Notes under the pieces: generated by a model
Told to the model about the DNA's origin: nothing
Database searches by the model: none
Seen by the model: the letters and a program-made list of their open reading frames with translations, nothing else
Shown: positions 37,862 through 56,654 of the stretch, piece by piece
Layout of the letters: the number at the start of each line of letters is the position of its first letter
How positions within the stretch are numbered: position 1 is the first letter of the stretch
Position numbers and translations under genes: made by a program
From: Desulfarculia bacterium
GTDB taxonomy: Bacteria; Desulfobacterota; Desulfarculia; Adiutricales; JAGVGV01
Length of the DNA: 64,000 nucleotides
Reading direction: 5' to 3'
NCBI GenBank assembly: GCA_963662445.1
Contig: OY759590.1
Location: forward strand, 2,560,249 to 2,624,248

Positions 37862-38208
37862 GCCGTCCCCTCTGACGGTCTGTTGTTGACTTAACTTATT
37901 TTACCATTAATAGCGCCGCCTTTCCATATCGGATAGCCCCTCGCAACTAGAAAACGCGGGCCTTCGCGGAGTTCTCTAACTGGCTTCCACCTCTCTGGTT
38001 GGGTAATCTGTTCGTGAGCCAACAAGGTTTCCCACAGTTAGGCGGCTATGGGAAAGCAAGCAGGCTGTGGCCCCCGGGGCTTTGACCTGCCTGCGAGGCT
38101 CCCGCTCAGACACTGTCGCGGGTGAGCTTGGGGCATCCTCGTTCAATCGTCTTTTTCCAGTAAAAATAGCCAGCGAACGCCCTTCAATGAGCTCCTGAAA
38201 TAAGTTTT

Positions 38209-38285
38209 GCTTGACACAAGGAGTTGTTTGTGATGAATTCAATGGTAATTCAATCTGCTTCATGTACGCTTTTATCGTGAATTTG
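38209..38285 (+). promoter_or_regulatory. conserved promoter/operator-like element, copy A (upstream of the hut operon)
   Basis: TTGACA (38211-38216), a 17-nt spacer, then TGaTGAATT (extended -10-like, 38231-38239). This is followed by TTCAAT..TAATTCAAT and GTGAATTT boxes. About 70% ungapped identity over ~76 nt with 52876-52952 (counted by eye). Confidence 0.5.
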
Positions 38286-38648
38286 CATATTGAGCTTCCA
38301 GAGAAAGCTGTTCGCGGGTTCTCTGTCAAAACGGTTCAAAGCGACTCAACACGGTGCGATTGACTATGATTTCTCGTCTGAACAAAAAAAACTGTGTTTC
38401 CGCCGCCGGTTTTCGGCCTAAACCGCTGTCCGTGAATCTCGGGAGTATCGCCGATACAGGATGTCATCCCGAAAATCGCCGGACGTGCCCGGTTTGGCAT
38501 ATCAATTGGCATTATCGGAGATGGTCGGCCGCGAGTCTTCACTCGCCGATTTCGGCCGAATGAGGAAGCCTGCGTCTTGTGCTTTTAGGTAAACGATCAG
38601 AATCAAGGCAAGACCGTCTGTTCTTTCAGTTAACTTGAGGATAAGAAA

Positions 38649-40304
38649 ATGACTCGTCAGATAAAGGCCATGCGTGGTCCTGAGTTGCGCTGCAAGGGGT
38701 GGCGTCAGGAGACTCTCCTGAGAATGCTGGAGAACGTGCTGGAAGTAGGGGAGAGGCCCGAGGATCTGGTCATCTACATGTCCAGCGCCAGAGCTGCCCG
38801 CAACTGGGAATGTTTCGACGAAATTGTCCGCGTTCTCAAGACCATGAATGAGGACGAAACCCTTTTGATTCAGTCCGGCAAGCCGGTGGGGCTTTTTCAG
38901 ACTCATGCCGACGCGCCTCTGGTGATTATGGCCAATGCCAACCTGGTCGGCCAGTACTCCCGTCCCGAAGTCTTTTATGAACTCGAAGCCAAGGGCTTGA
39001 CCATGCCCGCCGGTTTCACGGCCGGCGGTTGGCAATACATAGGCACTCAAGGCATTGTCCAGGGGACCTATATGACTTTTTATGCTGTCGCCAGGCAGTA
39101 CTTCGGCGGCAGCCTGGCCGGAAAATTCGTGGTTACGGGCGGATGCGGCGGCATGGGCGGGGCTCAGCCTCTGGCGGTGACCATGAACGGCGGCGTGGCT
39201 CTGGTTGTGGATGTGAACCCGGCCAAGATACAGCGCCGGGTGGATAACGGATATTGCGACCGTATTGTCTACGACCTTGACGAAGCCCTGCTGCTTTGCC
39301 GCACGGCCTTGGCCGATAAAAGGCCTTTCTCGGTAGGGCTGGTGGGCAATACCGCTGAAGTTCTGCCTGAACTGCTGCGCCGGGGAATAATACCTGATGT
39401 CGTGACCGATCAGACCGCCGCCAGCGATCCCCTGGCGGGCGGATACGTGCCTGCCGGTTTCGATGTCAAACCGGCCGCCGAATTAGCCCGCACCAAGCCG
39501 GAAGAATATTTGAAGGAAGCCTTCAAATCCATGGGCATCCATATGAAAGCCATCCTGGAGTTCCAGAAGAGAGGCGCCGTGGCTTTCGAATACGGCAACC
39601 TGCTCAGGGAAAAAGCCCGGGACCACGGCGGAGTGGCCGATGCATTCGATGTCCCCGGTTTCATGGAGAAATTTATCAGGCCTTTCTTCTGCCAGGGCTG
39701 CGGCCCCTTCCGCTGGATAGCCGTTTCCGGTGATCCCGAGGACATAGATGTGATAGACGAATTGCTGATCCGGGAATTTCCCGATGAGCCGCACATTTCG
39801 GGCTGGCTCAAACTGGCGGCCGGGCATGTCCCCTTTGAGGGCCTTCCCGCCCGTATCTGCTGGGCCTCTCATGGGCAGAGAAGCAGAATAGGGGTCATGG
39901 TCAACAACCTGGTTATGGAAGGCAAGATCAAGGGGCCGGTGGCTTTTACAAGGGATCATCTGGATGCGGCTTCGGTGGCCATGCCTCACCGCGAAACGGA
40001 AAATATGCTTGACGGCAGCGACGCCATTGCCGATTGGCCGTTGCTGAACGCATTGCTCAATGTCACTTGCCGCGCCGACTTGGTCACCATCCATTCGGCG
40101 GCCGGGGGCAGCACCGGGGTGAGCACCAGTTGCGGGACAACCCTGATTGCCGATGGCACACGGCTGGCCGCGACCAGAATCCAGAAGACTCTGGACGCTG
40201 AAACAGGACTGGGAGTCCTTCGATATGCGGATGCGGGGTATGATACCGCCCGGGAATGCGCCCGCACTAACCATATTGGCAAGGTGTCTTTCCTGAGGAC
40301 TTAG
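38649..40304 (+). CDS. hutU: urocanate hydratase
   Basis: 551 aa, colinear with urocanases (GWRQE..LRML.N, GGWQYIGTQGIVQGTY, GGMGGAQPLA). Confidence 0.95.
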   Translation: MTRQIKAMRGPELRCKGWRQETLLRMLENVLEVGERPEDLVIYMSSARAARNWECFDEIVRVLKTMNEDETLLIQSGKPVGLFQTHADAPLVIMANANLVGQYSRPEVFYELEAKGLTMPAGFTAGGWQYIGTQGIVQGTYMTFYAVARQYFGGSLAGKFVVTGGCGGMGGAQPLAVTMNGGVALVVDVNPAKIQRRVDNGYCDRIVYDLDEALLLCRTALADKRPFSVGLVGNTAEVLPELLRRGIIPDVVTDQTAASDPLAGGYVPAGFDVKPAAELARTKPEEYLKEAFKSMGIHMKAILEFQKRGAVAFEYGNLLREKARDHGGVADAFDVPGFMEKFIRPFFCQGCGPFRWIAVSGDPEDIDVIDELLIREFPDEPHISGWLKLAAGHVPFEGLPARICWASHGQRSRIGVMVNNLVMEGKIKGPVAFTRDHLDAASVAMPHRETENMLDGSDAIADWPLLNALLNVTCRADLVTIHSAAGGSTGVSTSCGTTLIADGTRLAATRIQKTLDAETGLGVLRYADAGYDTARECARTNHIGKVSFLRT

Positions 40305-40398
40305 ACCGGCTTTTAATTTGAATGGCCCGAAGTTCCAAGGAAGCGAATAGTGAAGTGCTCAACAAACTAATGAGAACTTTTATGCAAAGGGGGAACTG

Positions 40399-41427
40399 AT
40401 GAAGACCATCAATTTTTGCAGAATCGGAATGGTAGCGCTTTTGACTCTGGCCCTGCTCTTGCCGATTGGACTGACCCCGGCGAAAGCCGTGGCCGAGGAC
40501 AAAACCCTCACGATCATGTTATGGGGCGCGACATGGAATGTGGGCGTAAAGGATGTAGCCAAGAAGTTCGAAGAAAAATACGGCGTCCCGGTCAAGGCCG
40601 TCATGCAGTCAGGGTCCTCCGAGGGGCTGGCCAAGATGATGGCCTCCCAGGGCAAGCCGGGCGTTGACGTTTGGTTCTGCGATGCGGCCATGCCCAGCAC
40701 CGCGCCTCCGGGCCTGATCGCCGACATCGACCCGGCCAAGATTACCAACAGTCCCGATCTGGTTCAAGGCGCTCTCACCAAAAAATACGTAGCCCAACTC
40801 TATTACCCGCAAGGCATCATCTACCGCAAAGACATCTGTCCCATGGAAATTAAAACCTGGGAAGACCTGTGGAAGCCGGAATTCAAAAAACAGCTGGCCG
40901 TCCCGCCGCCGGCCTTCGACCAGGGGACCTTCCTTGTTGTTGCTGCCAAACTCAACGGCGGCAGCGAAACAGACATCCAGCCCGGTTTCGAAAAGATCAA
41001 ACAGCTCATGCCCAACGTGGTCACTTTCTACGACAATGATTCAACTTCCCGCAAGCTGCTGGCCCAGGGCGAAGTGTCGGTTCTCATCGGCAATACCGGC
41101 AGCCTGGATTATCTCACTGAAGCGGGCATTCCTGCGGAAGTCGTCAATCCCAAGCCGACCCCGGTCTCCTTTGACGTCATGACCGTGGTCAACAACGGCA
41201 ATGAGGATCTGGCCCACAAGTTCATAGACATGATGGTTTCCAAGTGGGCTCAGGAAATCTCCGTGCTGCCGCACAAGTGCGCTCCGGTAAACAGCAAGGT
41301 GGACGCCACGGAAATCTTCGCGGGCGACTTTCCCAAGCCCGAAGACTCTCTGATTATCGACCACGCCGCTGTCAAGGACAACCTGGATAAGTGGATAGAG
41401 CAGTGGGACAAGGAATTCGTCAAGTAG
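40399..41427 (+). CDS. ABC transporter periplasmic substrate-binding protein (family 1, PotD-like)
   Basis: Signal peptide (MKTINFCRIGMVALLTLALLLPIGLTPAKA) and a 342-aa PotD/PotF-like sequence. Confidence 0.8.
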   Translation: MKTINFCRIGMVALLTLALLLPIGLTPAKAVAEDKTLTIMLWGATWNVGVKDVAKKFEEKYGVPVKAVMQSGSSEGLAKMMASQGKPGVDVWFCDAAMPSTAPPGLIADIDPAKITNSPDLVQGALTKKYVAQLYYPQGIIYRKDICPMEIKTWEDLWKPEFKKQLAVPPPAFDQGTFLVVAAKLNGGSETDIQPGFEKIKQLMPNVVTFYDNDSTSRKLLAQGEVSVLIGNTGSLDYLTEAGIPAEVVNPKPTPVSFDVMTVVNNGNEDLAHKFIDMMVSKWAQEISVLPHKCAPVNSKVDATEIFAGDFPKPEDSLIIDHAAVKDNLDKWIEQWDKEFVK

Positions 41428-41601
41428 GCGCGTAAGTTGACAATAGGCTCCCCAGACGTGATGACGGGAATCATCCCGTCATCACGGGACAACCGGGCAG
41501 GCGGAACAGAATGCCGCCGGTTCCTGATTCTATCGGCGCCCGCATGTCCGCCCGGCGGGCGCGGTTCCAAGGCAAATACTCCAGGGAAGTAATTGATACC
41601 T

Positions 41602-42720
41602 ATGCAGCAAACATCCCAAACCGATTATGTGGAATTCAGTGATATCTGCAAGGTTTATGGACGCAAGAAAGTACTTTCCGGCGTCTCTTTAACCATTAGA
41701 GAAGGTGAATTGCTCTCTCTGCTGGGGCCGAGCGGATGCGGCAAGACCACGCTTTTGAGAATTCTGGCCGGGTTTGTCACCCCCTCACGGGGCGAAGTCA
41801 GGGTTGGCGGCAAGCTCCTCAACCCCATACCCCCAAACAAGCGTAATGTCGGCATGGTTTTTCAACATTACTGCCTTTTTCCTCACATGACCGTGTACGA
41901 CAACGTTACGTTTGGTCTCAAGATGCGCGGCATGGATCGGAAAAAGATGGATAAAAGGGCTATGGAGTGCCTGGATCTGGTCCATCTGGCCGACCTGAAG
42001 AATCACTATCCCGGTCAATTGAGCGGCGGAATGAAGCAGAGAATCGCGCTGGCCCGCGTTCTCGCCTTCCAGCCAAGTGTTCTTCTCCTGGATGAACCTT
42101 TTGCCGCTCTGGACCGCAATCTTAAGGACGAAATGCAGTTCGAGGTCCGTAAGCTCCAGCAACTGCTAAAGATAACCACTTTGTTCGTGACCCACGACCA
42201 GAAGGAAGCCATGACCATCTCCGACCGCATTGCGGTCATGAATTACGGGCTTATAGAACACGAAGGCAAGCCTCTGGAAATATACGACCATCCACGGACC
42301 AAGTTCGTGGCCGAGTTTCTGGGCGTGCCTCACTTCTTCAGCGCGAAAGTTATAAGCACGAACGGCCGGGAAGCCACCGTGGAGCTGCTGAACGGAAAAA
42401 AGCTGACTGTGCCGGTCACACAAAAGCCTGCTTCGCCGGATGTCTCAATCGCCGTCAGGGCCGAGCGCATTCAGGTCGCCCCCAGGAACAGCAACGGCAG
42501 CGTCCAGAGGAGTCAAAACACGGACGATAGCCTGCATCTCTCAGGCGTTGTAACCTTCACGACAAATGCCGGCTACATCATAACCTACGAAATCCAGATC
42601 CCGGACGGGCCTAAGCTGATTGTCGAGGCTCCGCGACAGGAAAGGTGCGCCGGTTTCGAGCCCGATGACGAGGTGGAAATCACTATCATGGGGCAAAACT
42701 GCACCTTGATCGAAAGGTAA
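41602..42720 (+). CDS. ABC transporter ATP-binding protein (PotA-like, with C-terminal TOBE-like domain)
   Basis: Walker A GPSGCGKTT, signature LSGGMKQR, Walker B LLLDEP. ATG 41602 is preferred over TTG 41593. Confidence 0.9.
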   Translation: MQQTSQTDYVEFSDICKVYGRKKVLSGVSLTIREGELLSLLGPSGCGKTTLLRILAGFVTPSRGEVRVGGKLLNPIPPNKRNVGMVFQHYCLFPHMTVYDNVTFGLKMRGMDRKKMDKRAMECLDLVHLADLKNHYPGQLSGGMKQRIALARVLAFQPSVLLLDEPFAALDRNLKDEMQFEVRKLQQLLKITTLFVTHDQKEAMTISDRIAVMNYGLIEHEGKPLEIYDHPRTKFVAEFLGVPHFFSAKVISTNGREATVELLNGKKLTVPVTQKPASPDVSIAVRAERIQVAPRNSNGSVQRSQNTDDSLHLSGVVTFTTNAGYIITYEIQIPDGPKLIVEAPRQERCAGFEPDDEVEITIMGQNCTLIER

Positions 42721-42727
42721 GCTGACC

Positions 42728-43660
42728 GTGGCAGATGCTTCATTGACGTACGACGGCTCCATGGAAACGATTCTGGGGCAAGACAGAGACTACCAGACAC
42801 TGACCGGGAGAACCCTCTGCTTCCTGCTGGTGCCTACCCTGGTCCTGCTGCTGATTTTCTTCGTCTCCTACCTGTCATTCATCATTGAGAGTTTTCATGA
42901 ACTCGTGCCCGGCCTGGCCATGGTCGGAGACGAATGGACCCTGAACAGCTACCGGCGGTTCTTCGGCGACCCCTTGTATCCGTCCTTTTTGTGGGAATCT
43001 ATATGGCGGTCGGCCGAGATGACGGCCATCACCCTGGTGATTGCCTATCCCCTGGCTTATTTCACCGTGCGAACCAGATCGAATATGGCCAGGTACATCA
43101 TCATGATCGTCATGCTGGTTCCCCTGCTGGCCGGCGGCATCACCATCGCTTATGCCTGGATAATCATGCTGGGTAATGTGGGTCTGGTGAATTCAATCCT
43201 GAAGGGTATAGGCATCATCGACCATCCGATCAAGTTCCTGTACTCATGGCGGGGCGTGGTCATAAGCGTTGTTCATTACCTGGTGCCTTTTGCGGCCCTG
43301 GTCCTACTTGGGCCTATTCAGAACATTCCCCGTTCACTGGAAGAAGCCGCCGTGAACCTGGGCGCGACCAAGCTCAGGGTTTTCGTGAAAGTCATTTTCC
43401 CGCTTACCATATCGGGCGTGATCGAGACGGTCTCCCTGACTTTCGCCTTGGCTTTGAGTTCCTTTCTTTTCCCGCTGCTTCTGGGCGGAGGCCGGGTGAA
43501 GATGATGTCCAACATCATCTATGAAAGGATAGCCATTTCCTACGACCTGCCTTTTGCCGCCGTACTGGCCATCATGTTGCTGTTTGTTTCCCTGGCCACG
43601 GTCCTTGGCCTGGCCCGGTTGCAGAAATTCTACAAACAAAAGTATGAGCAGGGGCTGTGA
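42728..43660 (+). CDS. ABC transporter permease (PotB-like)
   Basis: Six hydrophobic segments and an EAA-like loop (SLEEAAVNLGATKLRVF). Confidence 0.85.
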   Translation: MADASLTYDGSMETILGQDRDYQTLTGRTLCFLLVPTLVLLLIFFVSYLSFIIESFHELVPGLAMVGDEWTLNSYRRFFGDPLYPSFLWESIWRSAEMTAITLVIAYPLAYFTVRTRSNMARYIIMIVMLVPLLAGGITIAYAWIIMLGNVGLVNSILKGIGIIDHPIKFLYSWRGVVISVVHYLVPFAALVLLGPIQNIPRSLEEAAVNLGATKLRVFVKVIFPLTISGVIETVSLTFALALSSFLFPLLLGGGRVKMMSNIIYERIAISYDLPFAAVLAIMLLFVSLATVLGLARLQKFYKQKYEQGL

Positions 43661-44481
43661 GAATGGCATTTATCAAGCGGCGTAACGACTTCAGCATGAT
43701 CGGCCCGGGCCTGAGCATCACCGTGGCGGCAATTGTCATCTTTATTGCCATGCCGGTGGTTTTCACCATAGCCTATTCATTCAACCCGAGTCCCTATTTC
43801 GGATTTTCCGTCACCCGTCTTTCCCTGAGGTGGTATTTCAACCTGTTTTCACTCGACTACTTCAGGCACGCTTTTCTCGTAAGCCTCGGTCTGGCGGCCT
43901 GCGTGATGCCTCTGGCCACCTTGTTCGGCATGGGAGCAGCCTATGCCCTGGTCAGGGGAGAATTCAAGGGCAAGGAATTGCTGAATTCGCTGGTGCTGTC
44001 GCCGATTGTGGTTCCGGGCATCATCACCGGTATGGCCCTGCTGACTTTTTACAGCATCGTCTGTCTGAACTGGAGCTTCGGCAAGCTGGTTCTGGCCATG
44101 ACCATCTGTACCGTGGCCTATCCCATCAGAACCATAACGGCAAATCTTCACGGACTCACTTCCCACATAGAGGAAGCCGCCATCAATATGGGCGCCAGCC
44201 GCTGGACCACCTTCTGGCGGATCGTCTTTCCTCAGATTGGGCCGGGAATCCTCAGCGGATGCATCTTCATATTCACCATGGTGCTCGAAGACGTATCCAT
44301 TGTCATCTTCCTGGTGGACATGCACACCAATACCCTGGCCATAGAAGCCATGAACTACATGCGGACCATGGATGATCCGACCATAGCGGCCATGTCCACC
44401 ATGCTGATCGTCATGACTCTGCTGCTGGCCCTGGTCATCGAAAAATTCATCGGTATCGGCAAGTTTATGAGCCTGGATTAG
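43657..44481 (+). CDS. ABC transporter permease (PotC-like)
   Basis: EAA-like loop (HIEEAAINMGASRWTTFW). Overlaps the upstream stop by 4 nt. Confidence 0.85.
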   Translation: MRMAFIKRRNDFSMIGPGLSITVAAIVIFIAMPVVFTIAYSFNPSPYFGFSVTRLSLRWYFNLFSLDYFRHAFLVSLGLAACVMPLATLFGMGAAYALVRGEFKGKELLNSLVLSPIVVPGIITGMALLTFYSIVCLNWSFGKLVLAMTICTVAYPIRTITANLHGLTSHIEEAAINMGASRWTTFWRIVFPQIGPGILSGCIFIFTMVLEDVSIVIFLVDMHTNTLAIEAMNYMRTMDDPTIAAMSTMLIVMTLLLALVIEKFIGIGKFMSLD

Positions 44482-44490
44482 AAGTCAGAT

Positions 44491-45651
44491 ATGAAAAAAG
44501 AGATCACTGAATACCTGGAAAGCATCAAGCACCAGCCGCTGAAGCACATCGAAGCTCTGGTGAATATCGAAACCAGTTCCCACGACAAGGAAGGTGTCGA
44601 CAGGGCCGGAGCATATATGGCCCGCGAACTTGAGCGCATAGGTTTTCTCATTGAAAAGAGGCCTCAAGAGGTCATCGGCGACCAGATACTGGCCCGCCGC
44701 CTTTTCGGCGGGCGGGGCCGGGTCCTTATTCTGGGGCATCTGGATACGGTCTGGCCCAAAGGGACCCTGGCCGGTTGGCCTTATGCCGTTACCAGCGACG
44801 GTTTTGCCGTGGGGCCTGGGGTTGGAGATATGAAAGGCGGCATAGTGGTCGCCCTGACCGCGCTGGAGGCGCTTATGGCCACAGGCGCGGCGGACCATCT
44901 GGAATCAATTACCTTCATGCTTGTTCCGGATGAAGAGATAGGCTCGCCCATCTCCCGGACCTGGATAGAAGAGGAAGGCGGCAAGGCCGACTGGGCCCTG
45001 GTCATGGAGCCTGGCCGGGAGAACGGCGGCGTGGTCACCAAAAGGGCGGTCATGGGCCGGTTCACCATAACCGCTCATGGCGTGAGTGCTCACTGCGCCG
45101 TGAATAAAGGTGAAGGGGCCAGCGCCATCAGGGAACTCGCGGCCAAGGTGGCCCTCCTGGAGGACCTGACCCGGATAGACCTCGGGATACTGGTCAATGT
45201 GGGGTTGTTCAAGGGGGGCGAGGCTCGGCAGGTTATTCCGGCCAGGGCGGAGATGGAGATAGATTACCGGGCTCCCAGCCAGGACGAAGCCGACAGGCTG
45301 GTGGAAAACATCCGCCGGATAGCCCTGCACAAACTGAATTCCAAGGTCTCCATCGAGTTGGAAGGACGGCAGTCGCGCCCGGAATTTCCCCGCTCTCCGG
45401 GCACGTTGGAACTCTACCGCCGGGCCCTGGCTATCGCCAATGAGATGGAAATGCCTTTACCGGAAATACACACCAAGGGCGGATCGGACGGCAGTTTCGT
45501 GGCCGCGCTGGGGGTGCCCACACTGGATGGGCTCGGCCCCATCGCCCTGGACGATTGCAGCCGCCGGGAACGGCTGCTCATCAGCAGCATCATACCCAGA
45601 ACACGCCTGCTGGCCAGACTGATCGCCGGTCTCGGCCAAGCGGAAAATTAA
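44491..45651 (+). CDS. M20-family metallohydrolase (carboxypeptidase G2 / dipeptidase / aminoacylase-like)
   Basis: LGHLDTV, GPGVGDMKGG, PDEEIGS, GGSDG motifs of the M20 family. Substrate not assignable. Confidence 0.8.
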   Translation: MKKEITEYLESIKHQPLKHIEALVNIETSSHDKEGVDRAGAYMARELERIGFLIEKRPQEVIGDQILARRLFGGRGRVLILGHLDTVWPKGTLAGWPYAVTSDGFAVGPGVGDMKGGIVVALTALEALMATGAADHLESITFMLVPDEEIGSPISRTWIEEEGGKADWALVMEPGRENGGVVTKRAVMGRFTITAHGVSAHCAVNKGEGASAIRELAAKVALLEDLTRIDLGILVNVGLFKGGEARQVIPARAEMEIDYRAPSQDEADRLVENIRRIALHKLNSKVSIELEGRQSRPEFPRSPGTLELYRRALAIANEMEMPLPEIHTKGGSDGSFVAALGVPTLDGLGPIALDDCSRRERLLISSIIPRTRLLARLIAGLGQAEN

Positions 45652-45693
45652 AATACGGACGTTGAAACGGCCTGAGTTCGAGGAGAAAACGTA

Positions 45694-47226
45694 ATGGTTG
45701 TTTTGAAGATAAATGGCAATAATCTGCAACTGGAAGACGTCATAAACGTTGCCTTGTACGGGCAGAAAGTTAAATTGGATTCCGACAGCCGCCGCGCCGT
45801 TACGGCCGCCTACAGGCAGGTGGAGAGAGCGGTTGTGCAGAATCTCAAGATATACGGTATAACAACCGGCCTGGGCCATTTGAGTGAAGTAAGCATCAGC
45901 CAGGAGATGACCAAAAAACTTCAGGAAAACCTGATCCTGAGCCATTGTTCTGGCGTCGGCGACGAATTCCCCGTGGAGATATGCCGGGCCATGATGCTGC
46001 TCCGGGCCAACGCCCTGGCCAAAGGTTATTCCGGAGTGCGCCCCGAAATCATCGAAAATCTTCTGACGCTGCTGAACGCCGGGATCACTCCGGTGATATT
46101 CAAACAGGGATCGGTCGGGGCCAGCGGTGATCTTGTTCCGCTGGCTCACATGGCCCTGCTTCTGACCGGCAAGGGCAATGCCCGCCGGAATGGAACACTC
46201 ATAACCGGTGTGGAGGGACTCAAAGCCGCCGGTTTGGAGCCAATGGAACTTGAGGCCAAGGAAGCATTGGCCCTGGTCAACGGAACCCAGGCCATGGCCT
46301 CCGTTTGCGCCCTCACCCTGAGCCGGGGATTGCATCTGGCCAAGGTGGCCGACATCGCCGGAGCAATGACTCTCGAAGCTCTGGGAGGCACGGCGGCCGC
46401 CTTTGATGCCAGAATCCATCAAGCCCGTCCCATCCCCGGCCAGGGTGAGGTGGCCGCAAACGTCCTCAAAGTCGTCAATGGCAGCTCGATCACGCCGCCT
46501 AGCCTGAATTCCAGGGTTCAGGACGCCTATTCTCTCCGCTGCATGCCCCAGGTTCACGGAAGTGTGCGGGAGGTTTTGAAGTTCGTCCGTTACCTTCTGG
46601 AGATTGAACTGAACTCCGCCACCGACAACCCTCTGGTTTTCCCGGAAGACGGCGATTTCCTGTCCGGCGGCAATTTCCATGGCGAACCTCTGGCCTTTGC
46701 CGGAGACTTCATGAGTATTGCCCTATCGGAACTGGCCAACATTAGTGACCGCCGCAGCGCCCGGCTGACCGATCCTCATTGCAGCGACCTGCCGCCCAGC
46801 CTTTCCAAATTCGCCGGTGAAGGCAACTGTTTCGGCATCCTGCAGATTGTCACCGCGTCTCTGGTTTCGGACAATAAGTCCTTGGCTCACCCGGCCAGCG
46901 TGGACAGCGTGCCCACCAGCGCCAACCAGGAAGATCACGTGAGCATGGGGCTCAACGCCGCCCGTAAGGCCTGCGATATAGCGGACAACCTGGAAAATGT
47001 CCTGGCCATAGAATGCATCTGCGCGGCCCAGGCCCTGGATTTTGTGGGGCTGGAGCGTTGCGGACGGGGAACCCGGGCGGCTCATGCGGCCATAAGGACC
47101 TGTATGCCCTGGGTTGACGGAGATGTGGCCAGACTTTTCTCGGATGACATAAGGGTGGTCAGGGAATTCATAACCAGCGGAAAATTTCTGCAAGCCGTGG
47201 TCGAGTCTGTAGGGGAGCTGCATTGA
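45694..47226 (+). CDS. hutH: histidine ammonia-lyase
   Basis: 510 aa. MIO-forming GASGDLVPLAH, NGTQ and QEDHVSMG motifs. Confidence 0.93.
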   Translation: MVVLKINGNNLQLEDVINVALYGQKVKLDSDSRRAVTAAYRQVERAVVQNLKIYGITTGLGHLSEVSISQEMTKKLQENLILSHCSGVGDEFPVEICRAMMLLRANALAKGYSGVRPEIIENLLTLLNAGITPVIFKQGSVGASGDLVPLAHMALLLTGKGNARRNGTLITGVEGLKAAGLEPMELEAKEALALVNGTQAMASVCALTLSRGLHLAKVADIAGAMTLEALGGTAAAFDARIHQARPIPGQGEVAANVLKVVNGSSITPPSLNSRVQDAYSLRCMPQVHGSVREVLKFVRYLLEIELNSATDNPLVFPEDGDFLSGGNFHGEPLAFAGDFMSIALSELANISDRRSARLTDPHCSDLPPSLSKFAGEGNCFGILQIVTASLVSDNKSLAHPASVDSVPTSANQEDHVSMGLNAARKACDIADNLENVLAIECICAAQALDFVGLERCGRGTRAAHAAIRTCMPWVDGDVARLFSDDIRVVREFITSGKFLQAVVESVGELH

Positions 47227-48503
47227 CGGTTTTTCCCGGACATCCCGACCTGATTATCCATAACGCCGGAGAACTGGCCACCCTGGCTTCAACGGGAAGA
47301 GGACCCCGATGCGGCCGGGATATGGATGAAATAGCCTCTGTAAAAAAAGGGGCTGTGGCCGTGGCTGGCGGCCGGATACTGGCCGCCGGTCCCGAGGATG
47401 AAATCACGGCCCGGTTTGAAGCCGGGCCGGAAACCCGGTTGATTGACGCCGGGGGGCGTTTTGTCTCTCCTGGACTCGTGGATGCCCACACCCACCTGGT
47501 TTTCGCCGGGTCACGCGAAAATGAGTTTCGCCTGAAAATAGTAGAGGGGCTGAGCTACGGCGAGATAGAACGCCTGGGCGGGGGGGTGCCTGAGTCGGTG
47601 AGGCAGACCAGGGCCGCCAGCCTGGAAACCCTGCTGGACCAAGCCCGCCCGGTCCTCCGGCGGATGATGAGAAACGGCGTCACCACCATAGAAGCCAAAA
47701 GCGGCTATGCTTTGAACACCGCGGGAGAGATCAGGCTGCTCGAAGCCATGCGTATTCTGGACCGGGAAGGCCCGGTTGAGATAGTGCCCACTTTGTTCGG
47801 AGCACACGACATGCCTCCGGAATACTCCGCCCGGCCGGAAGGTTTTCTTGAACTCATCATCAGCGAGATGATTCCCGCCGTGGCCGCCCGAGGCTTGGCC
47901 AGATTTTACGACAGCGGTGTTACCTTTCCTCCTGAACAGACCGCCCGGCTTTTTGAAGCCGCCAAGGCGCACGGGCTTCGGCCCAAGGTCCATGCCGACG
48001 AGTTCGCCCATATGGGCGGCGCGGCTTTGGCCGCCCGCTGTGGAGCCATCAGTGCCGAGCATTGTCTGAACTCCACCCCGGAAGACCTGGAAGCCATGCG
48101 CCGGGCCGGAGTCATGGCCGTGCTGCTGCCGGCGATCCCCATAGTGCACCGCCTGAAACAATCCGTGGATGCCCGCCGGTTTATCGACGCCGGGCTGGCC
48201 GTAGCCCTGGGGACTGATTTCAATCCCAGTTGCCCGGTTGAATCATTGTCCATGGTCATGTCCCTGGGATGCTACACAAGCGGCATGAGTCCGGCCGAAG
48301 CCCTGACTTCGGCCACGGTCAATTCAGCCCATGCCATTGGCCGGGGGGGCGAGATCGGCTCCCTGGAACCGGGAAAACAGGCTGATCTGGTGATCTGGGA
48401 TGTGGCCAATCACTTGCAACTCTGCGCCAATCCCAGCGGCGGCCTGGCTGGCATGGTCGTCAAGAAAGGCGAGATTGTCTGGGAAAGCTGTTCTTCCCGC
48501 TGA
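47223..48503 (+). CDS. hutI: imidazolonepropionase
   Basis: GLVDAHTHLVFAGSRENEF, KVHADE, GTDFNP motifs. The TTG start overlaps the hutH stop. Confidence 0.9.
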   Translation: MTVFPGHPDLIIHNAGELATLASTGRGPRCGRDMDEIASVKKGAVAVAGGRILAAGPEDEITARFEAGPETRLIDAGGRFVSPGLVDAHTHLVFAGSRENEFRLKIVEGLSYGEIERLGGGVPESVRQTRAASLETLLDQARPVLRRMMRNGVTTIEAKSGYALNTAGEIRLLEAMRILDREGPVEIVPTLFGAHDMPPEYSARPEGFLELIISEMIPAVAARGLARFYDSGVTFPPEQTARLFEAAKAHGLRPKVHADEFAHMGGAALAARCGAISAEHCLNSTPEDLEAMRRAGVMAVLLPAIPIVHRLKQSVDARRFIDAGLAVALGTDFNPSCPVESLSMVMSLGCYTSGMSPAEALTSATVNSAHAIGRGGEIGSLEPGKQADLVIWDVANHLQLCANPSGGLAGMVVKKGEIVWESCSSR

Positions 48504-48517
48504 TCTGAGGTTTTGCC

Positions 48518-48778
48518 ATGGACCAGAAAGCTTTTGCGATGCTGACAGCCCTGAGCGGCCTTGAACTGTCGGAGAGCCGCTCAAAGGAACTGTACGACTA
48601 CAGCCGGCAGTTGTTCGCCAGTCTGAAGCCGCAACCGGGACAGGATGATTCCGCTGATGAAGCGACGGCTGACCAGGTGAAGCGGATATTCGGCAAAGCC
48701 CGCTCCATCCAGGAACTGGACCTGGCCCGGGTGGAACCGGCCGTGAATTTCGGCATCGAACACCTGTCCGGGGATTGA
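48518..48778 (+). CDS. small protein, possible GatC/AtzG-like partner of the downstream amidase
   Basis: 86-aa ORF located 6 nt upstream of an amidase-signature gene. Assignment is by position and size only. Confidence 0.35.
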   Translation: MDQKAFAMLTALSGLELSESRSKELYDYSRQLFASLKPQPGQDDSADEATADQVKRIFGKARSIQELDLARVEPAVNFGIEHLSGD

Positions 48779-48784
48779 GGCCAT

Positions 48785-50203
48785 ATGTCAGCCAACGATC
48801 TCTGCTTCATGGGTATCAAAAAACTGGCCGAACTGCTCGGCCACGGTGAGATTTCGCCGGTCGAACTGACCACGGCCTGTCTGGACCGTATTGAAGCCTA
48901 TGACGCCAGAATAAATTCATTTATCAATGTATTTCGGGATGAAGCCTTGGCTCGGGCCCGGTTGGCCGAGGAGGAGATATTCAAAGGGGGCTGGCGCGGC
49001 CCGCTGCATGGAATCCCCTTCGGGCTGAAAGATCTTTTCATGGTCCAGGGTAAACCTTTCACCCTGGGCAGCCGGCTTTTTCATGATGAGATTGCTTCCC
49101 TGGACAGCACGGTGGCTCTGCGCCTGAGGCAGGCCGGGGCTATACTCCTGGGCAAACAGAACATGAATCCGCTGGCTTATGGCCCTTTTGCCACGGAACC
49201 GGGATACGACTACGGCCATACCTTCAATCCCTGGGATACAACACGCATCTCCGGCGGCTCCAGCGGCGGCTCCGGAGCGGCCGTAGCGGCTGGGTTCTGC
49301 CCCTTCTCCGTGGGCAGCGATACGGGCGGTTCGGTCCGCATACCGGCGGCCTGGTGCGGGACCGTGGCCATGAAGCCCACCTATGGGCGCATCAGCAGGC
49401 ATGGAGTGCAGGCACTGGCCTGGAGCCTGGATCATCCGGGGCCTTTCACCCGGCGGGTGGAAGACTGCGCCCTGGTGATGCAGGTCCTTAGCGGCCACGA
49501 CCCAATGGACCCGTCTTCCGCCGGAAAAAAAGCGCCTTTTTTTTCGGGCCTGCTGAACAGTGACATCAAGGGCCTGAAAATCGGCCTTCCAGTTGAATAC
49601 TGGCAGCTCCCCCTGGATCCGGAAGTGAAAAAAAAGGCCGAACAGGCCGTCATGGTCCTTGAGGAACTGGGGGCCGAGACGGTGGAATTGTCCTGGCCCA
49701 TGCTGGCCTATGCGGAAAATACCAGCAACATCATCCTGCTGGCCGAAGCATCCTCCGCTTATGAGCAGTTGGTGAAGCAGCAAGGCCAAAGGCTTTGGCC
49801 TGCCTTGAGGTTGCGGCTGGAAGCCGGTCTGCTGCTTTCGGCGGCCGACTATCTGCGGGCTCAGAAAGCCAGAACTCTGCTCGTCGCGGAAACCAACCGG
49901 CTATTCGAGAAGGTCGACCTGCTCGCCGGACCGGCCATGCCGGTCACCGCCAGCCGCCCCGGACAGGCCCTGGTGCAGGCCGGTGAGAATGAGATAGGGG
50001 TCGTCAGGGCCATGACCCAGTACAACGAGGTCTTCAATCTGACCGGACATCCGGCCCTCTGCCTGCCCTGCGGCTTTTCCGCGTCGGGACTCCCCATCGG
50101 CCTGCAACTGGTGGGAAGGCCTTTTGCCGAGGCGCTTGTTTTACAAGCGGGCCAGGCCTTCGAAACGGCGACCGGTTTCTGGAAGCCGAGGCCCGAACTT
50201 TAA
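48785..50203 (+). CDS. amidase-signature family amidase (GatA/AtzE-like)
   Basis: GIPFGLKDL (catalytic Lys), GGSSGGSGAAVAAG, GSDTGGSVRIPA. Confidence 0.88.
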   Translation: MSANDLCFMGIKKLAELLGHGEISPVELTTACLDRIEAYDARINSFINVFRDEALARARLAEEEIFKGGWRGPLHGIPFGLKDLFMVQGKPFTLGSRLFHDEIASLDSTVALRLRQAGAILLGKQNMNPLAYGPFATEPGYDYGHTFNPWDTTRISGGSSGGSGAAVAAGFCPFSVGSDTGGSVRIPAAWCGTVAMKPTYGRISRHGVQALAWSLDHPGPFTRRVEDCALVMQVLSGHDPMDPSSAGKKAPFFSGLLNSDIKGLKIGLPVEYWQLPLDPEVKKKAEQAVMVLEELGAETVELSWPMLAYAENTSNIILLAEASSAYEQLVKQQGQRLWPALRLRLEAGLLLSAADYLRAQKARTLLVAETNRLFEKVDLLAGPAMPVTASRPGQALVQAGENEIGVVRAMTQYNEVFNLTGHPALCLPCGFSASGLPIGLQLVGRPFAEALVLQAGQAFETATGFWKPRPEL

Positions 50204-50231
50204 AATCTGTTGTGAGGAGAGTCTTATACCA

Positions 50232-51638
50232 ATGCCTGAGATAATGCCCAACGAATACCGGCCCGCATCGTTGTCCGACGTGCGGAAGCTTCACGAAGCC
50301 TCCTTGCACATCCTGGAAAAAAACGGCCTGGCCTTCCATCATCAGGGAGCCCTTGAGCTATTCAGAAAGGCCGGAGCCCACATCGACGGCGACATTGTGC
50401 GCATCAAGCCAGCCCTGGTCGATTGGGCCTTACAGGCAGCGCCCAAGGAATTGACCATCTATAACCGAAATCTGGAACCGGCCATGCTGATCGGGGGCGG
50501 ACGCCGAACGAGTTATTACGGAGTGGGTTCGGACAGCATCTATATCTACGACCTCGAAAACGGCCAGCGCCGCAAAGCTGTTCTTCGTGACATATCTGAA
50601 GGCATGCGGCTTGTCTCCGGCCTTTCCAATGTCGACTTTGTCATGTCCATGTTCGTTCCCTCGGATATTTCGGCCGAGGATTACGGGCGTCATCAGATGC
50701 TGGTGATGCTCAACGAGAACATCAAGCCCATTGTCTTCACCGGGGTGACCAGGGAATGCGTCGCGGAGGCGATAGGCATGGCGGCCCTGGTGCACGGGCG
50801 GGATGAACTGAGTAAAAAACCCTTTATCATAAATTACGTCAACACCGTCACCGCGCTTAAGCACAACGAGGAGAGCGTGCAGAGGCTTATGGAAGCGGCC
50901 GTGGAAAATATACCCACCATCTATGCGCCCGGCAACTCCAGAGGCACCACGGCACCCATGACCGTGGCCGGTATGCTGGCCCTGGGCAACGCCGGGCAGT
51001 TGGGCGGGCTGGTGCTGTCCCAGTTGGTGCGAGAAGGCTCGCCGTTTATCCTGAACAATCCCAGCGTGGGTGTTATGGACATGAAAACCATGGTGGACCT
51101 GTATGTCAGCCCTGACGGCGGCATATACAGTTGCGCCCTGGCCAATCATTACGGTCTGGCAGCGCTCTGTTCAGCCGGGGCCAGCGACTCCAAGGTTTTT
51201 GACGGGCAGGCCGCCGGTGAAGCCTGCCTGACCCTCTTCAGCAATACCTTCCGGGGGGCCAACCTGATACAGAATCTGGGTTACCTGGATTCGGCCATGA
51301 CCGGCAGCTTTGAACTGATTGTCTTTTGCGATGAGATAATAGGCTGGCTGAAGCGGTTTATGGAACCGCTGGAGGTCAATGACGAAACTCTGGCCCTGGA
51401 TGTCATTGACCAGGCCGCGCCTGGGTGCAATTTCATCGCTACGGAACACACCTTCCGCCATTTCCGGGATGACTGGCAGCCCCGCCTGTTGGACCGCTGG
51501 AGTTTCAGCCAGTGGGAACAGAACGGATGCCAGAGTCTCAACCGGAGGGCCAATGCACTGGCCCGCGATCTTCTGTCAAAGGCCCCGGTTGAGCCTTTGC
51601 CGCCGGAAACTCTGGCCGGGCTTAAGGCCATGCTCTAG
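50232..51638 (+). CDS. MttB-superfamily (COG5598) corrinoid-dependent methyltransferase, non-pyrrolysine type
   Basis: About 468 aa, colinear with the second MttB homologue at 53883. Uninterrupted frame with no in-frame TAG. GAGGAG RBS upstream of ATG 50232. Confidence 0.85.
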   Translation: MPEIMPNEYRPASLSDVRKLHEASLHILEKNGLAFHHQGALELFRKAGAHIDGDIVRIKPALVDWALQAAPKELTIYNRNLEPAMLIGGGRRTSYYGVGSDSIYIYDLENGQRRKAVLRDISEGMRLVSGLSNVDFVMSMFVPSDISAEDYGRHQMLVMLNENIKPIVFTGVTRECVAEAIGMAALVHGRDELSKKPFIINYVNTVTALKHNEESVQRLMEAAVENIPTIYAPGNSRGTTAPMTVAGMLALGNAGQLGGLVLSQLVREGSPFILNNPSVGVMDMKTMVDLYVSPDGGIYSCALANHYGLAALCSAGASDSKVFDGQAAGEACLTLFSNTFRGANLIQNLGYLDSAMTGSFELIVFCDEIIGWLKRFMEPLEVNDETLALDVIDQAAPGCNFIATEHTFRHFRDDWQPRLLDRWSFSQWEQNGCQSLNRRANALARDLLSKAPVEPLPPETLAGLKAML

Positions 51639-51653
51639 TCCGTGAAAAAATTG

Positions 51654-51685
51654 CCCTTTCCCAGCCGGTTGCGGCAGGGAAGGGG
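51654..51685. terminator. hairpin between convergent genes (possible bidirectional terminator)
   Basis: CCCTTTCCC (51654-51662) pairs with GGGAAGGGG (51677-51685), including one G-U pair, with a 14-nt loop. No clear U-tract. Confidence 0.3.
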
Positions 51686-51699
51686 AGTATCTCTGCGGA

Positions 51700-52515
51700 T
51701 CAGATATGCCCGTAGTAGTCTCTGTGGGCGACTATGGAATAGGCGAAATCGAAAAGCGTCCCCCAACTGAAGACAGGTATATCTATCTCTCTTTGCAGGG
51801 CGCGGGCAAAGGGCGGAAACCCCGTGCATTCCAGGACCATGGCCCCCATATTGGGGTAAGCTTCGAAAAAGGCCACGGCCTCCGCCAGGAACTCCCTTTC
51901 CGCTTTTTCGTAGAGAGCCTGGGGAATCTCGGAACGCACACCTTCAGTCCACAGGTTGTGAAACTCCGGGCACCTCTGGTCGTCCATCACCCCGCCGATG
52001 ACATAGTTGCCCCCCAACTGTATGCCGACGTTCACTAAATGAGCGTCCTGCAGAACGTCCTGGCAGCTCATGAGAATGCCAACAACCTTTTGGGGACCGA
52101 TGATCTGCTGGGCCCAGGGCACCTGCAGGAGGCTGGACATGAAAACGGGGATGTCCACACAGGCGGCTATTTCCTTCTGAAAATAGGAGAAATAACCGCA
52201 TTCGGCCATGATGGCCCGGCAGCCCATGTATTCGAGTTTCCGGGCGGCCTTAACCAGGGGTTCCAGGCAGGCGGACTTGTCTTCCTGATAGACCAGGGCC
52301 TGTATGTCGACTCCTTCGGCTATTTCGTACTGTATTGGGTAAGGAAAGCCGCTGGCGTTGCGGACGTCGCCCGGAAACCCCGGATAGACCTCATCCAGGA
52401 GCAGCACCCCCAGCCCCATGCCGTAACAGTGTCTGTTCTTGCGGGTTGCCGCCTTTTTAATGCCCATATCCCTGTTCTGCCGCCACATCTCCCTGCACTC
52501 CTGTTCCGCTGTCAA
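51700..52515 (-). CDS. Asp/Glu/hydantoin racemase-family protein
   Basis: GVLLLD..PGDVRNA..F.YP, AIMAECGYF and LECTGFPPFA blocks, with two Cys-containing active-site-like segments. Recollection-based call; the start is uncertain. Confidence 0.55.
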   Translation of the reverse strand: MTAEQECREMWRQNRDMGIKKAATRKNRHCYGMGLGVLLLDEVYPGFPGDVRNASGFPYPIQYEIAEGVDIQALVYQEDKSACLEPLVKAARKLEYMGCRAIMAECGYFSYFQKEIAACVDIPVFMSSLLQVPWAQQIIGPQKVVGILMSCQDVLQDAHLVNVGIQLGGNYVIGGVMDDQRCPEFHNLWTEGVRSEIPQALYEKAEREFLAEAVAFFEAYPNMGAMVLECTGFPPFARALQREIDIPVFSWGTLFDFAYSIVAHRDYYGHI

Positions 52516-52875
52516 AGAAAACAGCTTCCGTGAAATATACCTATCTCTTGAATAGTAATGAATAAATACAGTTGGCCTCGCGGGTTTACGGCCTTCCGGT
52601 TCGACCCGGAGGCGATATTATGAATTTAGTATGAATCAATTGTGTTGTCTATATCAATTCAATATACCCGCAAGCCTGGCCCAATCTAAACCCGGCTGCT
52701 GAACGGCTACGCAAATCAGGTGGCCTGAACTTCGACCGTCTGGGGAACGGTGGAAAAACAATCGCATACAGCTTCTGTTTTTCCCCTTGGTATTCAAGTT
52801 TTTCAATTCTTTCCGGGCTGTCCGCTTTTTGCTGTTTGGCCGCGCCATCTTGCCGGATCGGGCCGCGATTAATTT

Positions 52876-52952
52876 TCTTGACACCCAAAATCATTTGTGG
52901 TGAATTCAATCTTAATTCAACCTGACTACGAAACGCCTTTATTGTGAATTTT
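52876..52952 (+). promoter_or_regulatory. conserved promoter/operator-like element, copy B (upstream of the corrinoid methyltransferase operon)
   Basis: TTGACA (52878-52883), a 17-nt spacer, then TGgTGAATT (52898-52906), then TTCAAT..TAATTCAAC and GTGAATTT boxes. Paralogous to 38209-38285. Confidence 0.5.
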
Positions 52953-53178
52953 TGATTGGACAGCAACTTGAACATTCACTAGGCAGGCAGAATGACAACC
53001 GATCCCACCACAACGGCGTTGCCTTGTAATGAGATACTGAGATTCAGTCTCGGATATCCGTGGCCCGGACCGATGATCCGGCCAAGGGCGGCTACGCGGA
53101 AAAGTATCGGGAATGTCCGGATAATCTCATGACCCGCAAAAAACAATTCCATCTAAAGGGAAGGAGACCGAAGAGAAT

Positions 53179-53847: not shown

Positions 53848-53882
53848 TAAATTACCTGAAAAAGGACAGAAGGATATAAAAG

Positions 53883-55328: not shown

Positions 55329-55403
55329 AAAAAGCCGAAGCATGGCGGACGGTTCGGATTACCGCCCGCCATGCGGCGAAATGAAGTTCAATGGGGAAAG
55401 CAA

Positions 55404-56617: not shown

Positions 56618-56654
56618 TTAACTCAAATCAAGATTGTATGATGTGAAGGGTGTC

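Follow-up and report, generated by a model that had tools for sequence, protein, structure and literature searches.

The window, as we call the whole 64,000-nt stretch of Desulfarculia DNA analysed here, carries an operon for histidine utilization (hut) at 38649-51638, followed by the genes of a corrinoid-dependent methyltransferase system; all coordinates are window positions, and the host of the locus is described as a sediment-type anaerobe. Open reading frames (ORFs) were assigned to families by their Pfam and NCBIfam profile scores, judged against equivalog cut-offs. Eleven co-directional ORFs on the + strand make up the operon, with intergenic gaps of -4 to 165 nt. An initial annotation, made from the sequence alone, had proposed an eleven-gene operon here, and the ORF coordinates, strand and families (Pfam and NCBIfam) agree with it. 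The operon and the features around it are as follows.

38206-38284, + strand: hut promoter/operator element (longest direct repeat in 37800-57400)
38649-40304, + strand: HutU-like hydratase of a divergent urocanase subfamily (TIGR01228, 714 bits)
40399-41427, + strand: periplasmic solute-binding protein of the PotD/PhnS-like class (Pfam SBP_bac_8/6/11/1)
41593-42720, + strand: ATP-binding cassette (ABC) transporter ATPase with a TOBE domain, PotA-like (Pfam and NCBIfam)
42728-43660, + strand: ABC permease, PotB-like (Pfam and NCBIfam)
43657-44481, + strand: ABC permease, PotC-like (Pfam and NCBIfam)
44491-45651, + strand: M20 metallohydrolase, like carboxypeptidase G2 (CPG2), with Cys in place of His385 (Pfam M20 and dimerisation domain)
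45694-47226, + strand: histidine ammonia-lyase (HutH) with the ASG triad that forms the methylideneimidazolone (MIO) group (TIGR01225, 611 bits)
47223-48503, + strand: imidazolonepropionase, HutI (TIGR01224, 379 bits)
48518-48778, + strand: small ORF of 86 aa, a possible GatC/AtzG-like partner of the amidase (kept upstream of the amidase in relatives)
48785-50203, + strand: amidase-signature enzyme, GatA/AtzE-like (PF01425, E 1.5e-118)
50232-51638, + strand: MttB1, a non-Pyl methyltransferase of the MttB superfamily, 468 aa (PF06253)
51700-52488, - strand: Asp/Glu-racemase-like protein (PRK07475) with two conserved Cys (NF005679, 257 bits; cut-off 231)
52873-52951, + strand: second promoter/operator copy, upstream of the corrinoid-protein operon (repeat of 38206-38284)
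53179-53847, + strand: corrinoid (B12-binding) protein, MtgC-like (Pfam B12-binding and B12-binding_2)
53883-55328, + strand: MttB2, a second non-Pyl methyltransferase of the MttB superfamily (PF06253)
55371-56204, + strand: methyl-corrinoid:tetrahydrofolate methyltransferase (NF005719, 318 bits, cut-off 259; Pfam Pterin_bind)
56564-56623, + strand: gntR promoter TTGACA-18-TATATT with a third, partial operator (found by repeat search; kept in relatives)
56634-57266, + strand: GntR/FCD-family regulator (Pfam GntR and FCD)

The start codon of MttB1 is most likely the ATG at 50232, 28 nt past the amidase stop codon. The gene is called likewise in relatives and its product is 100% identical to a database protein of 468 aa (P0121), so that this start is favoured over the TTG at 50124 that had been assigned before.

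The hut operon and the corrinoid-protein operon are preceded by copies of a 79-nt element, the longest repeat in 37.8-57.4 kb. The hut copy, 365-443 nt ahead of the hutU ATG, consists of TTGACA, 17 nt, TGAATTCA-N3-TAATTCAA and then GTGAATT; in the general layout about 17 nt separate TTGACA from the palindrome TGAATTCA, and 3-4 nt separate the palindrome from TAATTCAA. Local alignment of the copies at 38206-38284 and 52873-52951 gave a score of 37, whereas shuffled sequences averaged 11-14 and reached at most 25. Upstream of gntR, beside its strong promoter, the partial operator reads TGTATTCA-N3-TTAATTCAA (56597-56623). The operator layout is also kept in related loci, upstream of hutU (L012 and L013), of MttB2 (L003) and of gntR (L001, L003, L004 and L012), so that sequence comparison reveals one operator shared across the member promoters and kept across species, as in a single regulon. 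Because three promoters carry the same element and related genomes retain it, one regulator most likely controls gntR together with the hut operon and the corrinoid/MttB2/methyltransferase operon; it is probably the GntR/FCD protein itself, a predicted repressor of all three promoters. The gntR gene adjoins MttB2 always in relatives, including the distant locus L176 described below, and NCBIfam/Pfam scans for HutC or HutP found no match.

The hutU leader (38285-38648) is unusually long at ~365 nt and varies in both sequence and length among relatives (about 190 nt in L012, 100 nt in L013); no Rfam match at E<=1 to a riboswitch or other known RNA was found in this leader or in that of the corrinoid operon. 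A sigma-54 promoter for the hut operon was considered and rejected: the sole motif upstream of hutU (38495) is weak and is not conserved in L012 or L013, and such motifs are fewer than chance would give. Divergent from hutU, on the - strand at 34956-37861, lie genes for a PAS histidine kinase and a sigma-54-dependent response regulator; since there is no conserved sigma-54 promoter upstream of hutU, this pair is probably unrelated to the hut operon.

The gene order hutU, solute-binding protein, ATPase, two permeases, M20, hutH, hutI, small ORF, amidase and MttB1 was found in about 12 relatives, with amidase identities of 67-98%, and in these MttB1 is followed by the racemase-like gene on the opposite strand, the second MttB gene and the GntR/FCD regulator gene. 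Repetition of the order in about 12 relatives is, by this comparison, enough to say that the arrangement is not a product of chance. Carriers of the cluster in the GTDB set comprised only two species representatives, both uncultured metagenome-assembled genomes (MAGs; 'delta proteobacterium' and 'Pseudomonadota'). Genes for the corrinoid protein and the methyltetrahydrofolate methyltransferase surround MttB2 in the window and in its 98% relative.

A more distant version lies on a 468-kb contig (L176), with a HutU 67% identical to that of the window. Its order is GntR/FCD, the MttB2 orthologue (68%), a POR-gamma-like ORF, HutU, solute-binding protein (47%), ATPase (52%), permeases, M20 (61%), HutH (frameshifted), an aminotransferase, HutI (61%) and pieces of a 2-oxoacid:ferredoxin oxidoreductase. 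All genes of this cluster are co-directional with short gaps, and the MttB gene is next to hutU; the two probably belong to one operon. No amidase pair, MttB1 or racemase-like gene is in view in L176. The genes that L176 keeps, GntR, MttB2, HutU, the importer, M20, HutH and HutI, thus form a conserved core, and the amidase pair with MttB1 and the racemase-like gene an accessory trio. The trio (amidase, MttB1-type gene, racemase-like gene) was found in the same order on two truncated metagenome contigs as well. The initial annotation had drawn attention to an MttB enzyme tied to hut genes; such a tie exists, but it belongs to the downstream MttB2 (53883-55328) rather than to the MttB1 within the operon.

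In L176 (9461-9979 and 18579-21656), 2-oxoacid:ferredoxin oxidoreductase and AMP-binding domains flank the cluster, whose aminotransferase gene lies between hutH and hutI; these aminotransferase and oxidoreductase genes may serve to oxidise glutamate further or to transaminate in parallel. Several loci contain split or fused genes: hutU in two pieces (L004, 25-1612), the small ORF and amidase fused into 618 aa (L004, 10001-11857), and fragmented genes for MttB2 (L012, 18215-19657) and HutH (L176, 17032-18565). These look like assembly frameshift errors, not real fusions or pseudogenes.

HutH, HutU and HutI, recognized as such in the initial annotation, all scored above their NCBI equivalog cut-offs. 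HutH (611 bits, cut-off 539) contains the ASG triad in GSVGASGDLVPLAH and, aligned to the histidine ammonia-lyase of P. putida, retains all eight catalytic and substrate residues (Y53, H83, N195, Q277, Y280, R283, F329 and E414), consistent with its earlier designation as a true ammonia-lyase. HutI (379 bits, cut-off 298) has visible HxH, HADE, EH and DxNP motifs. As a measure of divergence we counted changed positions among those invariant in canonical enzymes, with a leave-one-out baseline from canonical enzymes of four or five phyla. HutH had changed 11% of these positions (canonical range 4-15%) and HutI 15% (6-21%); the list of changed positions had suggested that the two might be specialised paralogues, but the baseline places both within canonical variation. 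Because HutH keeps the MIO triad and the histidine-binding residues, and because neither enzyme exceeds canonical variation, histidine is the likely substrate of the lyase, and the most economical one.

These orthodox features suit an explanation in which the locus serves ordinary L-histidine use, with a non-orthologous last step (by M20, the amidase pair or both) or a canonical last enzyme elsewhere, while the MttB, corrinoid and racemase-like genes act on an unrelated quaternary amine and are merely co-located or co-regulated, for example in a general regulon for nitrogen-rich osmolytes. All three equivalog scores agree with it, as does known MttB chemistry, which yields no primary amine from a betaine (PMC13080624). 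It does not account for an operator shared between the operons and kept across species, for MttB2 and GntR remaining beside the hut genes in L176 despite the rearranged order, for the divergent HutU, or for an importer unlike known histidine importers, and we consider it rather unlikely.

HutU, in contrast to HutH and HutI, falls outside the canonical range. It passes the TIGR01228 cut-off (714 bits versus 375) but scores higher with two models whose cut-offs it does not reach, NF058531 for S-methyl-thiourocanate (791 versus 880) and NF058530 for thiourocanate hydratase (749 versus 930). Between 23 and 25% of its canonical-invariant positions are changed, against 3-11% in canonical enzymes and 27-29% in the thio-type hydratases; the motifs YGGxGK, WIY, HHGGG and RHADAGY are replaced, and of the 33 positions that tell canonical and thio-type enzymes apart, HutU has a non-canonical residue at 21. 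The equivalents of Cys410 and Arg455, both lost in the thio-type hydratases, are nevertheless kept. It belongs with at least 38 protein clusters that were monophyletic in 50/50 bootstraps, and in overall identity HutU is equidistant from the canonical and thio-type groups; placement in a clean clade with the thio-type hydratases was not recovered in the tree. By these comparisons HutU is a member of a subfamily of its own, whose distance from canonical urocanases matches that of the thiourocanate hydratases.

This divergence keeps in play a ring-substituted histidine bearing a quaternary amine, such that the Hut-like enzymes would never meet histidine, urocanate or formiminoglutamate. Candidates are ergothioneine or S-methyl-ergothioneine, N-demethylated to 2-thiohistidine, and also ovothiol and free diphthamide or diphthine. 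HutU would hydrate a substituted urocanate, HutI would open the ring to give an N-(thio)carbamoyl- or N-acylimidoyl-glutamate, and the M20 enzyme with the AtzE/GatA-like amidase would free glutamate and ammonia, with no formiminoglutamate enzyme required. Such an ending suits amidase-signature enzymes like AtzE and allophanate hydrolase, whose substrates are ureido compounds, and known ergothioneine clusters likewise finish with an amidohydrolase and a Zn-dependent hydrolase. Besides the best matches of HutU and its thio-type degree of deviation, a HutH substitution fits, M382G, common to L176 and a Burkholderia ergothionase. Diphthamide would give natural roles to the amidase (the carboxamide), the MttB enzymes (the trimethylammonio group) and the CPG2-like N-acyl-glutamate hydrolase; diphthamide is scarce in nature, which counts against it. 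Several observations speak against ring substitution more generally. HutH keeps the MIO triad and is without the Lys (Lys384) that ergothionases use for the thiolate (bioRxiv preprint 10.64898/2026.04.22.720169); HutH and HutI do not stray from canonical variation; and HutU, besides retaining the Cys and Arg, is no nearer to the thio-type group than to the canonical one. The DUF917 protein of two plasmid ergothioneine-type clusters gave no tblastn match, the M20 hydrolase showed no similarity to the Zn hydrolases of ergothioneine clusters, and ergothioneine would still demand three demethylations. We regard a ring-substituted substrate as decidedly unlikely.

On plasmids, the nearest relatives of HutU are encoded in ergothioneine-type clusters of Agrobacterium (pAt; L174), Burkholderia (L175) and Neorhizobium (L181). 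Besides the hydratase, such clusters encode a DUF917 protein, an amidohydrolase and a Zn hydrolase; in Agrobacterium a ProX-type transporter and a molybdopterin S/N-oxide reductase are present too. A search for close counterparts of MttB2 or M20 on plasmids gave none above 44% identity.

The usual enzymes for the last step of histidine breakdown, which the initial annotation had not recognized in the window, were looked for in two ways. Pfam Arginase, FGase and FTCD domains were not found among the window ORFs scanned, and when the window and eight related loci were searched by six-frame tblastn with eight reference terminal enzymes (three arginase-type HutG, FtcD, cyclodeaminase, HutF and two N-formylglutamate deformylases), none gave a match at E<=0.01. 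Reference hut operons were taken from annotated plasmids: those of Priestia, Thermus and Tsukamurella have an arginase-type HutG, that of Cetobacterium has FtcD and cyclodeaminase, and those of Rhizobium and Klebsiella have HutF and N-formylglutamate deformylase. The terminal gene adjoins hutI or hutH in the reference operons compared. Since the terminal-gene search covered the window and related loci, it leaves room for ordinary histidine use with a canonical enzyme elsewhere.

Replacement of HutG or HutF by the M20 enzyme, the amidase or both, as the initial annotation had suggested, is plausible from sequence features, with M20 the better candidate, because it accompanies HutU, HutH and HutI in both lineages and because, among solved structures, it is closest to the N-acyl-glutamate hydrolase CPG2 (E 2.7e-40). 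CPG2 cleaves N-acyl-L-glutamates. The M20 gene product, whose earlier assignment is supported by its catalytic and dimerisation domains, keeps five of six metal and catalytic residues of CPG2 (H112, D141, E175, E176 and E200), with Cys at the zinc ligand H385, and scores below the PRK07473 and PRK06133 cut-offs. Its orthologue occupies the same position in L176. Cys at position 385 is common to the proteins of L176, Parapusillimonas, a Paracoccaceae plasmid and a Bacillota MAG, while more distant homologues keep His. The Cys-variant subfamily shares the motif D-x-C-S-R (window; L176, 15788-17017; L014, 9950-11167; L177, 7911-9131; L015).

The PotABCD-like importer adjoins the Cys-variant M20 gene in the hut clusters and also in L014 and L177; in Parapusillimonas and on the Paracoccaceae plasmid, M20 stands beside a homologous importer and flavin monooxygenases, with no hut genes. 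An M20 enzyme acting on an imported solute is thus possible, and we divide the predicted role of M20 about equally between release of glutamate from formiminoglutamate or N-formylglutamate, which suits CPG2 chemistry and the absent last step, especially in L176, and hydrolysis of an imported conjugate. The importer itself belongs to the Pot class only in broad terms, as all scores fall far below the PotA/B/C/D equivalog cut-offs (PotD 50 versus 582), and below that of PhnS. The best solved relative of the binding protein is 4edp, an entry whose molecule name gives no ligand. At the level of class, the PotABCD-like importer of the initial annotation stands: its closest matches are of the PotD/PhnS type.

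The linkage of importer and hydrolase is the main attraction of a further explanation, that histidine dipeptides or N-acyl-histidines (carnosine, anserine, N-acetylhistidine) are imported, with M20 as peptidase or deacylase at the front end; the amidase would have a side role, the last hut step would be encoded elsewhere, and the MttB enzymes would act only on methylated variants or not at all. The M20 gene begins 9 nt after the permease gene, the ABC and M20 genes form an ancestral module that occurs apart from hut genes as well, which suggests action of M20 on the imported solute, and the M20 family includes carnosinases and anserinase. This explanation is nonetheless very improbable in our view: the closest solved relative of M20 is a glutamate-releasing carboxypeptidase, not an Xaa-His dipeptidase, no PepD- or PepV-type model appears among its top NCBIfam matches, and the co-regulated corrinoid system goes unexplained unless the dipeptides are methylated, in which case the explanation merges with the N-methylated substrate proposed below.

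The amidase displays the GGSSGGS and catalytic Lys motifs, and its best solved relatives are GatA and AtzE (6c62), but it scores below both cut-offs (GatA, 356 versus 481; AtzE, 356 versus 461). The window enzyme and the broader family (P0066, P0068) all fail the GatA cut-off, and identification as a real GatA was rejected; no GatB was found among the window ORFs scanned. The 86-aa ORF matches the GatC model weakly (E 0.11; E 0.0026 for its homologue in L173), has no NCBIfam or Pfam family match, and gave no relative in a profile search against solved structures. Of the AtzG/AtzE- or GatC/GatA-like pair proposed earlier, the resemblance of the amidase survives, at scores below cut-off, while the small ORF gives only a weak GatC signal. 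The wider amidase family (about 54% identity) occurs with its small ORF in unrelated, housekeeping-like contexts. In two large genomes (L006, 9755-11413; L173, 9781-11413) the small ORF and amidase occur alone, near a trehalose-6-phosphate synthase-type glycosyltransferase, and fail the GatA and AtzE cut-offs. In the window the amidase could deiminate formiminoglutamate; it could also hydrolyse formamide, N-formylisoglutamine or an N-carbamoyl group, or turn an amide into the acid required by MttB1. An accessory enzyme of this last kind would have a precedent in MthK, which prepares the substrate of MthB (PMC12155760).

Both MttB1 and MttB2 match PF06253 at E ~1e-80, and a corrinoid protein and a Pterin_bind methyltransferase are encoded nearby, as in other MttB-superfamily systems; the MtgC and pyl_corrinoid models scored below cut-off with the corrinoid protein. 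Neither MttB ORF has an in-frame stop, and the TIGR02369 scores (313 and 382 bits; cut-off 525) agree with the non-Pyl type assigned earlier to the MttB within the operon. Both proteins were aligned to glycine-betaine-bound MtgB, in which roles have been described for the substrate residues Y97, R312, H348 and F356; R312 is conserved in all characterised MttB members, whose substrates are all acidic quaternary amines (PMC13080624). MttB1 keeps none of the four (Y97S, R312L, H348Q, F356A), and MttB2, with S, W, H and G at these positions, keeps H348 alone. The replacement of these residues, and above all the loss of R312 in both, indicates that neither enzyme is of the glycine-betaine type.

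The nearest relatives of MttB1 outside the cluster (54-59% identity) lie beside a racemase-like gene and have F and H at positions 312 and 348, as opposed to L and Q in the hut-linked clade. MttB2-type genes above 51% identity were absent from 84 other MttB-rich loci, an absence that disagrees with ordinary histidine use beside an unrelated methyltransferase. We surveyed racemase-like genes in 80 loci from a metagenome scan and four further loci (L008-L011, L092-L171). An MttB gene is adjacent to the racemase-like gene in 62 of the ~84 loci, and such a widespread module in non-hut contexts speaks, conversely, for ordinary histidine use. Neighbours in these islands include MttB paralogues, Opp-type ABC transporters, CBS proteins, methylaspartate ammonia-lyase, corrinoid proteins, GntR regulators and pyridoxal phosphate enzymes (Cys/Met gamma-lyase type, PALP, aminotransferases). 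As these partner enzymes need primary amines, the islands hint at complete N-demethylation or at methyls that are not on the alpha-nitrogen. In the literature searched we found no description of the pairing of MttB with a racemase-like gene, and nothing relevant linking MttB enzymes to hercynine, methylhistidine, urocanate, histidine derivatives or a racemase. A role for the racemase-like protein as the thiohydantoin desulfurase of ergothioneine pathways was rejected: in two plasmid ergothioneine-type clusters a DUF917 gene adjoins that of the hydratase, and an Asp/Glu-racemase-family gene is absent.

We tentatively read the ~19 kb from 38.2 to 57.3 kb as a GntR-controlled regulon through which an N-methylated histidine derivative would be used anaerobically, and in which M20 and the amidase would replace the terminal enzymes, and we hold this reading with somewhat less than even confidence. 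The PotABCD-like ABC system would import the methylated compound; MttB2, and in this lineage also MttB1, would move its N-methyl groups to the corrinoid protein, and the pterin-binding methyltransferase would hand them to tetrahydrofolate. The product after demethylation would be L-histidine, which HutH, HutU and HutI would convert to formiminoglutamate. The CPG2-like M20 would then free L-glutamate, either from formiminoglutamate or from N-formylglutamate after the GatCA-like amidase has removed ammonia, so that M20 with the amidase would stand in for HutG, HutF or FtcD. Candidate substrates may include hercynine and its partly demethylated forms, N-pi- and N-tau-methylhistidine, and dipeptides such as anserine; that MttB products feed HutH is likewise a prediction, as is whatever M20, the amidase pair and the racemase-like protein catalyse. 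We adopt this reading because of the shared operator, the linkage of MttB2, GntR and hut genes in two lineages and the orthodox residues of HutH; because the corrinoid protein and methyltetrahydrofolate methyltransferase genes lie inside the regulon; and because both MttB enzymes are without the MtgB-type pocket, the canonical terminal enzymes are absent from the locus and M20 resembles CPG2. An imported histidine derivative had already been suggested in the initial annotation; the shared promoter/operator and the MttB gene beside hutU in L176 argue for it, while the MttB within the operon, on which that annotation had focused, belongs to the accessory trio. A narrower claim, that the MttB enzymes demethylate a histidine-derived N-methyl compound to the primary amine of the MIO lyase while the Cys-variant M20 and GatCA-derived amidase release glutamate, seems to us possible but on the unlikely side; its substrates would be hercynine or ergothioneine, demethylated stepwise, a ring-N-methyl histidine or ovothiol.

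A number of points weigh against an N-methylated histidine derivative as substrate. The whole case is built on sequence comparison. Known MttB-superfamily enzymes take only one methyl group from a trimethylammonium group, so three demethylations are required to turn a betaine into a HutH substrate, and L176 has one MttB in view; the caveat made earlier, that a single MttB step cannot turn a betaine into histidine, therefore stands. We know of no MttB family member that demethylates a ring N-methyl group. A plain urocanate intermediate gives no reason for the divergence of HutU or for its best match to S-methyl-thiourocanate hydratase. The presence of the ABC and M20 module away from hut genes in Parapusillimonas and on the Paracoccaceae plasmid means that M20 may act on an imported solute and not on formiminoglutamate, while the amidase pair is absent from L176 and its family is found in unrelated contexts. 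A canonical hutG, hutF or ftcD may lie elsewhere in the genome, and the racemase-like protein has no clear role.

Elsewhere in the window, a polysaccharide/O-antigen-type cluster extends over about 1-33 kb, with stretches of 34-43% GC compared with 53-60% in the hut region, and includes genes for a GDP-mannose dehydratase-like protein, a glycosyltransferase, a DegT aminotransferase, epimerases and an ABC-2 exporter. A 307-aa ORF at 33430-34353 has a GcvH (glycine-cleavage H protein) domain in its C-terminal half only; the N-terminal half is without a family match.

If use of an N-methylated histidine derivative is borne out, the locus would represent a further version of the Hut pathway, coupled to B12-dependent methyl harvesting, and a methyl-conserving anaerobic alternative to trimethylamine-releasing lyases, by which anaerobes could use methylated histidines of fungal, bacterial and animal biomass without release of trimethylamine. 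It would also add a new substrate class to the MttB superfamily, which has thousands of members, most of them, to our knowledge, without a known substrate. Functions would follow for the Cys-variant M20 subfamily and for the widespread GatCA/AtzEG-like amidase pair, potentially new glutamate-releasing enzymes. The analysis further highlights the very common, uncharacterised pairing of MttB with a racemase-like gene, and the shared operator gives direct access to experiments, by way of regulator binding and screens for effectors.

Compared with the canonical Hut pathway, HutH, HutU and HutI are present here above equivalog thresholds; the differences are that no terminal enzyme of the three known types lies at the locus, that HutU is divergent, the importer of the PotABCD type and the regulator of the GntR/FCD family, and that the cluster appears to be co-regulated with a corrinoid methyltransferase system. 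Reuse of the Hut template is reportedly known, from papers of the Seebeck group, only for ergothioneine and N-tau-methylhistidine, the latter in a Bacillus terra pathway said to have been described by Beliaeva, Atac and Seebeck in 2022. The present cluster resembles ergothioneine clusters in a Hut-like template that would be reused for a modified histidine, in the likeness of its hydratase at many signature positions, and in having metallohydrolases other than HutG at the predicted pathway end. It differs in that the lyase keeps the MIO group, and for that reason would need a primary amine, whereas the known type is a MIO-less trimethylammonia-lyase; in that the hydratase keeps the canonical Cys and Arg; and in that M20 is of another subfamily. 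The DUF917 proteins and Zn hydrolases of Burkholderia and Agrobacterium had no match in the cluster, which does not have the make-up of an Ert-type cluster, where the MIO-less lyase is joined by a DUF917 protein, a hydantoinase-type amidohydrolase and an AmaB-type Zn hydrolase. In both the ergothioneine and the N-tau-methylhistidine pathways the methyl groups leave as trimethylamine or N-methylformamide, whereas here they would go to MttB enzymes.

As in the MttB-superfamily systems MtgB/C/A, MtpB, MtcB, MtyB and MthB with MthK, an MttB protein, a corrinoid protein and a methyltetrahydrofolate methyltransferase occur together. In contrast to these, both MttB proteins here are without R312, Y97 and F356, MttB1 also without H348, and they are encoded among hut genes, an amidase pair and a racemase-like gene. 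A small ORF precedes an amidase-signature enzyme, as in AtzE/AtzG (1-carboxybiuret hydrolase) and GatC/GatA, but scores are below cut-off, and the context is one of hut and MttB genes rather than s-triazine catabolism or tRNA transamidation. M20, finally, shares with carboxypeptidase G2 its fold domains and five of the six metal and catalytic residues, and differs from it in the replacement of His385 by Cys, in its linkage to an ABC importer, and in that a signal peptide and a folate context are not evident.

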